Assembly: GCF_030013595.1 (NCBI RefSeq)
Contig: NZ_CP122768.1
Source: Escherichia coli
Lineage (GTDB): Bacteria; Pseudomonadota; Gammaproteobacteria; Enterobacterales; Enterobacteriaceae
Direction: 5' to 3' (one strand)
DNA length: 64,000 nt
Shown here in pieces: positions 41,071 to 42,998 of the stretch. Each line of letters begins with the position of its first letter. Positions within the stretch are counted from its first letter, which is position 1. The notes below the pieces were generated by a model. The model searched no databases. It was given only the letters and a program-made list of their open reading frames with translations, and was not told the origin of the DNA. The translations under genes and the position numbers were made by a program.

Positions 41071-42057
41071 TCACTTATTAAAATGCCCCCAACGAAAATA
41101 CATGTCACATGCCATCATAAAATCGTTATGCCAGAGGAATCGACAATGGAAAAAATAGTAAATTAAGCATGGTACATAGCAGAGTAAAAAATAGGCTTCA
41201 AACCAAATCCGCCATTCCACAAGCGTTGCCAATACCGACACCAGCGTAATCCACATCACTTCAATAACCAGCAATATGAATAACCGAAGCCAAAGCGGCT
41301 TGGCAAAAAAGGTCGACAACGCATTTTCACTGGAGAAAAACAGATCGATTTCCTGCAAAAAAAGCCTGCCCAGAAAAGCGTACCGCTTGGAGAAGCGCAG
41401 AAAAAACAGATTAATCGCCAACACTACGCCACAAAGAATGAGCAATGCAATTATCGATTTAAACGTTAACCACTGCCCCTCTGTCACAAAAGAATCACTG
41501 TTACGCAACGGGCTGATAGTAAGCAGGTTAACAACCGTTGAGATGCACACCGAAAGCAGCACATAGCGAGTCAGACTTTTATATTTTACCTTTTTCGCCA
41601 CTGAAATAGCGACCTGCTTGACATAACTGGTGCGGATCATCCGAAACAGCAGAAAGATAACCAACGGCCCAAGTAACGAAATCAGGAACAGCGCATATAA
41701 CGAGGGTAGAAGCTGGTATAGCCCCCAACTCATTGCACTCAACATGATTAGCGACAGAAATCCTGCCACCAGAGGTTGCGTAAGAAATAATTCTATTTTG
41801 TGGTTATGCTTTTTCTTAAACCACGAAAAATCGATATTCTTCGTGACGCATTTATAAGCCCAGTACGCCTTGAGATCAAAAATAAAATTATACAGCACCA
41901 GGGCCAGAATCCCACTAACGACACCAATATCCTCAGATGGAAAAGTAAACCCTGCATTTTTCCAATAAAAGCCTATCAGAATAAGTCCAATAGCATAAAT
42001 GTATATCAGATTTCGTTTATCCTGAAAGCGAATAAAAGTTAAATAATCAGGAATCAT
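41071..42057 (-). CDS. ycdU: polytopic inner-membrane protein YcdU
   Basis: 328-aa [42 protein letters not shown]...; multiple hydrophobic segments; start overlaps stop of upstream gene (ATGA). Confidence 0.85.
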
Positions 42058-42998
42058 TTGAATACCTTCGCATCACTAAATGCTTTACGACAATGCATAA
42101 CTCGTTGCTGATCCACGCCAGCAAAATCATTTAACATATTCCCCAAATAAGGCTTATTACTTATTTCAAGGAAAGCTACCGGGGTTGGCATATTCAGAAA
42201 TGTATCGAGAGATTCAGTCCATTTCACCGTGTGAGTTAAGTGTAATGAGAGATTTTCTTTGATAATTGACGGAGCGACCTCGCTTTTTGCTGTTACGTTC
42301 ATCAGAACCTGATGCTCTGGTGAAGCGATATCCAGTCCGGCAAGATAATCGCGCATTGCCTGAACGCCGTCTTCCATCAAACGCGTGTGCCAGGCACCGC
42401 TCACACCGAGTTTAACCGGTTCGTATCCAGCGGCCATCAGCAGCGTGGCAAATTCATTCAACGCAGCCTGCGTTCCCCCAATAACCTGCTGGCGCGGCGT
42501 GTTATCACAGCTAATATCCAGCGCAATGCCTGATTCCGTAATCATCGTCTGCAGTTGTTCGCGGTTGATGCCTTTAACCGCCAGCATTGCGCCTTTATTT
42601 CTCTGGCTTTCGTCATGCATCAGGCTGGCTCTGAAGTGAATCATGCCAAATAGCGTCTCAAGAGAAAGAGCTCCGGCGGCGTAGAGCGCACTGTATTCAC
42701 CAACGCTGTGTCCGCAGGAGCCCACAACCGTTAAATTCTCAAGACGCTCACGGCACAGGGTATAGAGCGTTACATTAATTGCGGTCACCGCCAGTTGTTG
42801 TACCGTCGTTTGAATAAGGCGATTCATCGGCCCTTTCTGACACAGGCGACGCAGGTTCAGTCCGGAAATATCGCTGGCACAATCCCAGATATGTTTTGTA
42901 CTGGCGTTGAGATCCCAAAGATCGCTGCCCATACCAATAACCGGATTACCCTGACCGGCAAAAAGCAGTACTGTCGGTTGTGAAGCATTATTCATCAT
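42054..42998 (-). CDS. ymdE: FabD-like malonyl-CoA:ACP transacylase family acyltransferase (full-length form of ymdE)
   Basis: 314-aa [17 protein letters not shown] (cf. FabD FPGQGSQ) and nucleophile elbow GHSVGE; K-12 carries only a fragment of this gene. Confidence 0.8.

Follow-up and report, generated by a model that had tools for sequence, protein, structure and literature searches.

The ymdE gene in the window (the whole stretch of 64,000 nucleotides of Escherichia coli DNA analysed here) very probably encodes an intact transacylase dedicated to the cluster in which it lies as gene 16 of 17, and ymdE of strain K-12 would be the 3' 344 nt of such a gene, left by an IS3-associated deletion. 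The truncation of K-12 ymdE and the existence of the full gene are already known, both from the RefSeq annotation and from Goldstone et al. 2016 (PMC4951805), who described MG1655 ymdE as a pseudogene foreshortened by IS3 and reported a 945-bp homologue in other phylogroups. Coordinates of IS3D and ymdE are given in PMC5635171.

The intact gene and its product

The features around ymdE are as follows, in positions of the window.

42054..42998, minus strand: ymdE, full-length FabD-family acyl/malonyl transferase of 314 aa (ORF, Pfam PF00698, PDB homologues, FabD alignment)
42054..42057, minus strand: ATGA overlap of the ymdE stop and the ycdU start (direct sequence reading; same 4-nt overlap in Acinetobacter)
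41071..42057, minus strand: ycdU, for a polytopic membrane protein of 328 aa; it closes the unit and is intact in K-12 as well (orthologues after the acyltransferase in four other genera)
42397..42398, no strand: site corresponding to the IS3 breakpoint of K-12, between nt 601 and 602 of ymdE; K-12 keeps 42054-42397 only
42582..42583, no strand: position equivalent to the second class of IS3 breakpoint, between nt 416 and 417 of ymdE (strain 442/2 type, 529-nt stump)

The ymdE ORF begins with ATG and encodes 314 aa without an internal stop; in the closest genome, PGAP takes the second Met as the start, for a protein of 313 aa. An earlier note on this DNA had claimed an intact 314-aa ORF that carries a GHSxG elbow and overlaps the ycdU start by 4 nt, and both points were borne out. 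The TGA of ymdE occupies 42054-42056 and the ATG of ycdU 42055-42057, and the Acinetobacter locus has the identical 4-nt overlap between its acyltransferase (AT) gene and ycdU (positions 10930-10933 of that locus). This arrangement suggests that translation of ymdE and ycdU may be coupled. In comparisons of intact ymdE alleles the changes were mainly synonymous (7 synonymous and 3 non-synonymous in one comparison, 12 and 3 in another).

The Pfam family Acyl_transf_1 (PF00698) matched residues 12-290 of YmdE with model positions 3-276 of 319 (E = 2.5e-25). Its homologues of solved structure are malonyl transferases, namely PksC (5dz6, 1.3e-32), DisD (3sbm, 5.6e-32) and E. coli FabD (1mla, 2.7e-22). 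The elbow is GHSVG(E), with GHSVG at residues 96-100 and S98 as the nucleophile, and H204, in the motif SGAWH, aligns with H201 of E. coli FabD. Both S98 and H204 are kept in all full-length orthologues aligned. R123, Q16 and Q68 align with R117 of FabD, which binds the malonyl carboxylate, and with Q11 and Q63, respectively; all five functional residues of FabD are matched in YmdE. The motif preceding the His is GAWH, in which Trp203 is invariant in the family, whereas characterised malonyl-specific ATs have GAFH or HAFH. The predicted malonyl specificity is therefore drawn mainly from R123.

The 17-gene unit around ymdE

ymdE belongs to a tightly packed unit of 17 genes on the same strand, with intergenic gaps of -17 to +88 nt. 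The first 15 genes are listed below in their order in the unit; ymdE and ycdU follow them.

57588..61400, minus strand: TpsA exoprotein (OtpA of O157:H7; PMC5422565), first gene of the unit
55880..57499, minus strand: TpsB transporter (OtpB of O157:H7; PMC5422565)
55496..55864, minus strand: AcpS-type phosphopantetheinyl transferase, PPTase (family matches)
54721..55482, minus strand: FabG-type ketoreductase, KR, of the SDR type (family matches)
54169..54717, minus strand: FabZ/FabA-type dehydratase, DH (family matches)
53866..54147, minus strand: dedicated 93-aa acyl carrier protein, ACP, with the Ser motif LDSVD, presumed acceptor for YmdE (family matches)
52670..53830, minus strand: GcvT-family aminomethyltransferase-like protein (family matches)
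50038..52596, minus strand: KS-CLF, 852-aa fusion of an active-type ketosynthase (KS) with intact Cys-His-His and a CLF-like second KS domain (alignment)
48810..50033, minus strand: KS', divergent 407-aa ketosynthase with Ser at the position of FabF Cys163 (alignment)
47860..48813, minus strand: 317-aa Pfam-less protein of predicted thiolase fold, KAS III/MxnB/PqsBC-like (AF2 and Foldseek)
47142..47849, minus strand: LolD-like ABC ATPase (annotation and family matches)
46502..47158, minus strand: 218-aa protein with a signal peptide and no family match (sequence)
45191..46501, minus strand: LolC/E-, MacB-type ABC permease (family matches)
44394..45182, minus strand: LolA-like 'outer membrane lipoprotein-sorting' protein (PF17131, TP_0789-like)
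43009..44397, minus strand: secreted 462-aa protein with no family match (signal peptide by sequence reading)

The gaps suggest that the unit may be co-transcribed. In a promoter and terminator scan around ymdE, promoter-like matches did not exceed the shuffled expectation, terminator-like matches were about two SD above it, and neither kind fell at the gene boundaries of ymdE or ycdU, which makes the scan uninformative. Rfam at its gathering threshold detected only the tRNA-Ser beside ycdU; the 179-bp repeats (RtT in K-12 according to PGAP) scored below it.

In the CLF-like domain of the 852-aa protein, the Cys is replaced by Glu and both His are lost. The AF2 model of the 317-aa protein (pLDDT 63, pTM 0.69) was compared with the PDB by Foldseek, and enzymes of the thiolase fold made up nearly all of the top 50 matches (E about 1e-9, TM about 0.5). 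The all-helical AF2 model of YcdU (pLDDT 68) gave no PDB match by Foldseek (best E 0.48), and NCBIfam and precomputed Pfam gave no match for YcdU or for the 462-, 218- and 317-aa proteins. An outer-membrane location of the 462-aa protein is our guess.

A 17-gene unit with OtpA/OtpB at its head is conserved in five genera, and such a unit seems to be undescribed. Acinetobacter, Neisseria, Aeromonas and Klebsiella share the gene order from the GcvT-like protein to YcdU, and the order from TpsA onward is conserved too. We surveyed 5,426 complete E. coli genomes, of which 389 carry full-length ymdE and 390 the 12.9-kb (~13-kb) cluster upstream of it (380 with at least 80% coverage); the two are essentially the same set.

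An ACP, a PPTase, a KR, a DH and a predicted active KS are all encoded within the cluster, and YmdE is predicted to be the dedicated loader of this type II PKS/FAS-like system. Judging from the conserved residues, S98, activated by H204, would accept malonyl from malonyl-CoA, while R123 would hold the free carboxylate and the backbone of Q16 would contribute to the oxyanion hole. The malonyl group would then be handed to the phosphopantetheine arm of the 93-aa ACP, and extender units would thereby be fed to the fused KS-CLF, the ketoreductase and the dehydratase of the cluster.

It might be argued that YmdE is a redundant housekeeping FabD paralogue that serves general fatty-acid synthesis via AcpP. 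Its fold and catalytic residues are as in FabD, and PGAP names it 'ACP S-malonyltransferase'. However, YmdE shares 25% identity with E. coli FabD and scores 178.8 bits against the fabD equivalog of NCBIfam (TIGR00128), below the curated cut-off of 260.9. The housekeeping fabD sits elsewhere on the chromosome, apart from ymdE, which is found only where the 13-kb cluster is and moves with it between genera; about 93% of E. coli genomes do without the full gene. Since the equivalog cut-off was missed and the gene is linked to the cluster, a second housekeeping FabD was rejected as extremely improbable, and YmdE appears to be a cluster-dedicated enzyme. The term 'FabD-like' in the earlier note thus holds for fold and chemistry, but not for membership of the fabD equivalog. 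It is also conceivable that the AT fold does another job, either loading a non-malonyl group (a starter or a substituted extender) or, as the second AT of trans-AT polyketide systems does, hydrolysing acyl groups in a proofreading role. The family-invariant GAWH motif would fit such a role, as would the odd partners (the GcvT-like protein, the KS that has Ser in place of Cys, and the KAS III-like protein) and the presence of PksE among the top structural relatives of YmdE. Against it, R123, Q16 and Q68 are conserved as in malonyl-specific enzymes, and the best matches, PksC and DisD, are malonyl-CoA:ACP transacylases. ATs of the acyl-hydrolase type typically lack the carboxylate-binding Arg. 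We consider such a role unlikely, and malonyl loading dedicated to the cluster remains the preferred reading.

The K-12 remnant and IS3

K-12 ymdE is colinear with nt 602-945 of the window gene only (a stump of 344 nt, 98.8% identity), and homology between K-12 and the window runs on from the stump through ycdU, serX, ghrA, ycdX and ycdY. In K-12 ER3413, an IS3 of 1258 bp (4743-6000 of the examined locus) abuts the remnant, directly upstream of ycdU, and RefSeq annotates the remnant as 'ACP S-malonyltransferase, incomplete, missing N-terminus'. The first base of K-12 ymdE directly follows the last base of the right inverted repeat (IRR) of IS3 (TGGGTAAGATCA followed by GTGCC). The breakpoint lies inside codon 201, and the stump encodes A202-K314 only. 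The earlier note had described a short K-12 remnant beside IS3 and had taken it for the stump of this acyltransferase. The arrangement it described was found in ER3413, and alignment of the ORF with K-12 ymdE and the flanking IS3 supports the proposed origin: the two genes are related, the K-12 copy is truncated, and its junction coincides with the right end of IS3.

The 3-bp flanks of the K-12 IS3 differ between its left (TTT) and right (GTG) sides, with no target duplication, and a simple insertion therefore does not explain them. An IS3-associated deletion would have taken everything from the 3' flank of dgcT to codon 201. Adjacent deletion mediated by IS3 and recombination between a pair of IS3 copies yield the same sequence, and either could have been the mechanism. 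An intermediate combining an intact island with IS3 at the dgcT site was sought with a chimeric 300-nt junction query, of which none of the 5,426 genomes covered at least 80%; the order of events is thus not readable from extant genomes. The K-12-type stump of 344 nt was found in about 1,500 of these genomes. A stump of 529 nt, with an IS3 left junction identical to that of K-12 and a breakpoint at nt 417, was found in about 727, and a third length of 44 nt also exists. The K-12 stump keeps the His, and Ser98, Arg123 and the oxyanion-hole Gln16 went with codons 1-200; as judged from its residues, it cannot be catalytic.

The orthologues in Kosakonia, Klebsiella, Acinetobacter, Neisseria, Aeromonas, Pantoea and others are about 304-323 aa long throughout, and an AT orthologue is followed by a ycdU orthologue in all four of the other genera examined. 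Because the orthologues elsewhere have this length with ycdU downstream, full-length ymdE is the ancestral form and the K-12 gene the derived one.

From the lack of mutational attrition it has been suggested that selection maintains the stump (PMC4951805), which would then be a functional small gene and not a dead one. Its frame runs on without a stop into the end of IS3, so that a hybrid ORF of 119 aa with a TTG start results, no nonsense or frameshift change has occurred in it, and transcription evidence and enrichment in mastitis isolates have been presented (PMC4951805). However, Q16, S98 and R123 are gone with about two thirds of the fold, IS3 supplies the start codon and the first six residues of the hybrid ORF, and the existence of the 529-nt and 44-nt stumps argues that no particular length is preserved. 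The K-12 stump differs from the window allele by 4 synonymous changes only over 113 codons, each of which is also present in at least one of three other alleles compared. Such lack of decay is expected because the deletion would be recent and the stump is short; this account weakens the published suggestion, and we regard a selected function of the stump as very unlikely. A reversed history, in which the gene was short at first and its long version was made by island insertion and fusion in an O157-type lineage, would agree with the bare presence/absence pattern alone and with reviews that describe OI-47 as specific to O157 and relatives (PMC10877973). The short form, however, starts exactly at the IS3 terminus, full-length orthologues (54-83% identity) with the same neighbours are usual in other genera, and the N-terminal catalytic two thirds align with FabD throughout. 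The IS3 junction and these orthologues refute this history in practice, and its probability is close to nil. The preferred reading thus remains an IS3-associated deletion in a full-length ancestor.

K-12 ycdU would accordingly not be a gene to study as stand-alone but an orphan, the last gene of a lost operon. The intact locus, in at least five genera, links OtpAB with a module of its own for lipid synthesis and Lol-like transport, and would be the place to seek the function of OtpA and YcdU. The private lipid line has its own PPTase, ACP, AT, KS-CLF, KR and DH, and an enoyl reductase (ER) is absent. We tentatively propose, while rating it as rather doubtful, that K-12 ymdE'-ycdU is what remains of a 17-gene system that moves horizontally and couples OtpA/OtpB functionally to this PKS/FAS-like line, the GcvT-like enzyme and a LolCDE/LolA-like envelope transporter. 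If this is true, the product might be an unsaturated lipid, either carried to the outer membrane along with OtpA or attached to OtpA. In the literature searched, which lay largely outside the subscription journals, work on OI-47 concerned GrvA, VmpA and OtpAB secretion only, with nothing on the lipid genes and no description of such a coupling; the only published guess ties OtpA to the upstream fimbrial locus.

Comparison with known systems

Compared with K-12 ymdE (b1028), the pseudogene beside IS3D, the window copy shares the last 344 nt and the same downstream ycdU-serX-ghrA, but it is complete, whereas the K-12 copy lacks codons 1-200 and begins at the right end of IS3. The 17-gene unit forms the right part of the O157:H7 island OI-47 (z1528-z1556; extent as given in PMC8565820), including otpAB; the left arm, with vmpA and grvA, is located past the end of the window. 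From the end of the fimbrial locus to ycdU, the window is 97.8% identical to O157:H7 ATCC 43890 over 23,139 bp, and the two ymdE alleles are 98.9% identical. The window, however, represents a non-O157 background (best match a pig isolate, 99.9%), and its ycdU is followed by RtT-like repeats and serX, where O157 has the OI-48 integrase.

With FabD (PDB 1mla/2g1h; TIGR00128), YmdE shares the fold, the GHSxG elbow, the Ser-His dyad, the carboxylate-binding Arg and the oxyanion Gln; it differs in having GQGNP for GQGSQ and SGAWH for VPSH, and in being accessory and cluster-linked. Its closest solved relatives, PksC (bacillaene) and DisD (disorazole), with E of the order of 1e-32, are stand-alone ATs for a dedicated carrier protein and have GAFHS-type and VKWT/VRW motifs in common with YmdE. 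Despite these relatives, YmdE was not assigned to the discrete ATs of trans-AT PKS: a modular megasynthase is absent here, and the neighbours are discrete type II enzymes only, namely the KS-CLF fusion, KR, DH and ACP. The cispentacin Amc family was likewise rejected, the KS scoring 241.8 bits against a cut-off of 325 and the ACP and DH falling far under theirs.

Aryl-polyene (APE) clusters, like other type II PKS clusters of the highly reducing kind, resemble the present one in their KS with a CLF-like partner, KR, DH and ACP, in having no enoyl reductase, and in a LolA-like protein with a membrane exporter; the DH of the present cluster has a weak ApeI-like Pfam match. An adenylating enzyme that activates the aryl starter, an MMPL-type exporter and APE-type KS pairs would mark an APE cluster. 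Neither an AMP-ligase (adenylating/aryl-starter) nor an MMPL domain turned up in the 17 genes, and the likeness to APE is one of gene composition. What sets the present unit apart from APE clusters is a LolCDE/MacB-type ABC system, a GcvT-like protein, an AT and a PPTase of its own, and the TPS pair at its head.

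The ymdE gene of the window and its relation to FabD

The ymdE gene of this window had been described as an intact 314-aa reading frame with the GHSxG elbow of malonyl-CoA:ACP transacylases, overlapping the start of ycdU by 4 nt, and all three points were borne out. The gene (42054..42998, minus strand) runs uninterrupted over 314 codons from an ATG to its stop. The Pfam domain Acyl_transf_1 covers residues 12-290 (E 2.5e-25), the elbow is GHSVG at residues 96-100, and the TGA of ymdE (42054-42056) overlaps the ATG of ycdU (42055-42057) as ATGA. In the closest public genome, PGAP places the start one Met downstream, giving 313 aa. 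The ycdU product of the window has 328 aa, the same length as K-12 YcdU. While ycdU (41071-42057, minus strand) is intact in the window, the copy in the closest public genome (L002 20942-21927) is annotated as frameshifted, though the whole cluster is present there. The differences between intact E. coli ymdE alleles are mainly synonymous (synonymous to non-synonymous, 7:3 and 12:3), consistent with purifying selection.

The nearest solved structures to YmdE are those of PksC (5dz6, E 1.3e-32) and DisD (3sbm, 5.6e-32), both discrete malonyl-CoA:ACP transacylases, followed by FabD enzymes of several bacteria, including that of E. coli (1mla, 2.7e-22). Alignment with E. coli FabD, as found in the K-12 record, gave 25% identity, and every residue known from FabD work has an equivalent: Q11, Q63, S92, R117 and H201 of FabD correspond to Q16, Q68, S98, R123 and H204 of YmdE. 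The motif SGAWH before the catalytic His is nearly invariant among YmdE homologues; characterised malonyl acyltransferases have GAFH or HAFH where these homologues have GAWH. Against the NCBIfam fabD equivalog, YmdE scored 178.8 bits, below the cut-off of 260.9. Together, the conserved residues and the score suggest that YmdE works like FabD, yet is not the housekeeping enzyme.

The K-12 stump and the deletions behind it

The earlier note had also described K-12 ymdE as a short remnant next to IS3, proposed to align the two, and taken the K-12 gene for the stump of this operon's acyltransferase. When the ORF was compared by megablast with 5,426 complete E. coli genomes, the match in K-12 strains was colinear and limited to query 602-945 (98.8% identity). 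In K-12 ER3413 it lies between IS3 and ycdU and carries the RefSeq label 'ACP S-malonyltransferase; incomplete; missing N-terminus'. Homology continues past ymdE through ycdU, serX, ghrA, ycdX and ycdY. The IS3 is a complete copy (1258 bp; 4743-6000 of the ER3413 locus, L001), and the stump abuts its right end at window 42397/42398, where ...GGGTAAGATCA closes the right inverted repeat and GTGCCTGGCAC opens the retained ymdE sequence. The IS3 junction, the full-length orthologues and the shared ycdU neighbour support the proposed origin of the K-12 gene.

Since the break falls inside codon 201, the remnant codes for A202-K314. It retains H204 and is without Q16, Q68, S98 and R123, and is hence unable to catalyse transfer. 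A 119-aa hybrid ORF readable from a TTG within the IS3 end into the stump explains the gene listing in older annotations. Homologues of about 304-323 aa (54-83% identity) occur in Kosakonia, Klebsiella, Mixta, Pantoea, Leclercia, Serratia, Aeromonas, Acinetobacter and a Neisseria sp., and a ycdU orthologue directly follows the acyltransferase in all four genera whose loci were read (Acinetobacter YcdU, 39% identity over full length). Full length is hence the ancestral state of ymdE, from which the K-12 form derives.

The K-12 IS3 is flanked by TTT towards dgcT and by GTG towards ymdE, and these 3-bp sequences form no target-site duplication; the element was therefore not placed there by simple insertion. 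In strain 442/2, IS3 (L003 6743-8000) has a left junction identical to that of K-12, 10 bp past the dgcT stop, and 2 of 1258 positions distinguish the two IS3 copies. Its right junction, however, lies at ymdE nt 417 (window 42582/42583), leaving 529 nt. Neither this class nor the 344-nt class shows a target duplication, and a third arrangement joins IS1 to just 44 nt of ymdE. Adjacent deletion mediated by an insertion sequence leaves one fixed IS end and variable deletion end-points. IS3-mediated adjacent deletion may have produced the two stump classes next to IS3, although the sequences expected from recombination between two copies of IS3 are identical.

Among the 5,426 genomes, ycdU was found in 2,654, ymdE of any length in 2,624, its segment nt 417-601 in 1,116, and full-length ymdE (at least 80% covered) in 389. 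By subtraction, the 529-nt stump is left in about 727 genomes and the K-12 344-nt stump in about 1,500. The 12.9 kb upstream of ymdE were found in 390 genomes (at least 80% covered in 380), so intact ymdE is essentially confined to genomes with the whole cluster. In none of the 5,426 genomes did an IS3 at the dgcT site adjoin an island that was still in place. Six matches to ymdE/ycdU and one to the upstream cluster fell on plasmid-labelled records; mis-assignment or transfer is possible.

Elsewhere in the window, an insertion of about 1.4 kb (about 22745-24170, between mdoH and yceK) is seen relative to genome HCP5S3_I2, which is otherwise 99.9% identical. It carries a 445-aa transposase ORF (22811-24148, plus strand), which looks IS4-like.

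That K-12 ymdE is a truncated copy of a full-length gene is correct and already known from the RefSeq label and two publications: MG1655 ymdE was described as a pseudogene foreshortened by IS3, with a 945-bp homologue in other phylogroups (Goldstone et al. 2016, PMC4951805), and the coordinates of IS3D and the pseudogene were given by Cimdins et al. 2017 (PMC5635171). The present analysis adds the exact breakpoint and the identity of the lost catalytic residues, the nested stump classes and how often each occurs, the finding that intact ymdE and the cluster go together one to one, the score of YmdE below the FabD equivalog cut-off, and the conserved 17-gene context. The former study also noted a 'lack of mutational attrition' in the stump (PMC4951805). 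This needs no selective explanation, because the stump differs from the window allele by four synonymous and no non-synonymous codons, each of the four states being found in at least one other allele compared, with both intact alleles sharing three.

The 17-gene block

ymdE lies within a block of same-strand genes that overlap or are separated by gaps of up to about 88 nt.

Genes of the block, all on the minus strand and in order along it (PGAP annotation of the closest genome, supplemented for some members)
1, TpsA (55880-61400 together with TpsB)
2, TpsB (55880-61400 together with TpsA)
3, AcpS
4, FabG-type ketoreductase
5, FabZ-type dehydratase
6, 93-aa acyl carrier protein, LDSVD motif
7, GcvT-family protein
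8, 50038-52596, 852-aa double ketosynthase
9, 48810-50033, 407-aa ketosynthase
10, 47860-48813, 317-aa protein
11, LolD-like ATPase
12, 218-aa protein with signal peptide
13, LolC/E-MacB-type permease
14, LolA-like TP_0789-family protein
15, 462-aa protein with signal peptide
16, 42054..42998, YmdE
17, 41071-42057, YcdU

In the 852-aa protein, the FabF Cys-His-His triad is intact in the N-terminal half; the C-terminal half carries Glu at the Cys position and lacks both His, which makes the protein a fusion of a ketosynthase with a CLF-like domain. The 407-aa ketosynthase has Ser aligned at the Cys position. The 317-aa protein has no Pfam or NCBIfam match. Its moderate AF2 model (pLDDT 63, pTM 0.69, from a 5-sequence alignment) gave Foldseek matches in the PDB that are almost all thiolase-fold (E about 1e-9, TM about 0.5), mainly KAS III-like condensing enzymes such as MxnB, PqsBC, CorB, StlD and OleA. 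It is therefore predicted to have the thiolase fold of KAS III-type enzymes, which would bring the thiolase-fold domains of the cluster to four. There is no enoyl reductase among the cluster genes. The most economical reading would be a private iterative type II PKS/FAS-like line, onto which YmdE would load extender units and whose product might be passed to the Lol-like envelope transport system.

Comparison with O157:H7 and other genera

The window is 97.8% identical to O157:H7 over 23 kb, where the matching block makes up the right arm of O-island 47 (PMC8565820). In O157:H7, ycdU is followed by a tyrosine integrase (L005 39130-40332), the start of OI-48, whereas in the window it is followed directly by repeats and serX (40800-41070). 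The window strain thus has the OI-47-type cluster but lacks OI-48 at this position. The repeat, between serX and ycdU, is a 179-bp tandem repeat (4.4 copies, 99% match, 40145-40937) adjoined by tRNA-Ser (40072-40156, plus strand). K-12 has three units, annotated as RtT sRNA, and other strains have one. At the gathering threshold, Rfam reported the tRNA alone.

The TpsA/TpsB pair of O157:H7 corresponds to OtpA/OtpB, whose two-partner secretion is proven but whose function is not known (PMC5422565); a role for the pair in the upstream fimbrial locus has been guessed (bioRxiv 10.1101/2020.04.13.038984). In the literature searched, coverage of which is incomplete, no publication describing a unit of OtpA/OtpB and lipid genes was found. 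The 17-gene context is a reasonable lead for experiments. In Acinetobacter, Klebsiella, a Neisseria sp. and Aeromonas veronii (L012, L013, L014 and L015, the loci of these genera), acpS is preceded at a distance of 15-23 nt by a TpsA/TpsB pair, and the flanks of the unit differ in each genus; E. coli and Acinetobacter share 50% identity in TpsA and 45% in TpsB. The 17-gene unit, with OtpA/OtpB at its head, would accordingly seem to be mobile among these genera and E. coli. This synteny connects OtpA/OtpB with the downstream lipid-synthesis and Lol-like genes instead of with the upstream fimbrial locus.
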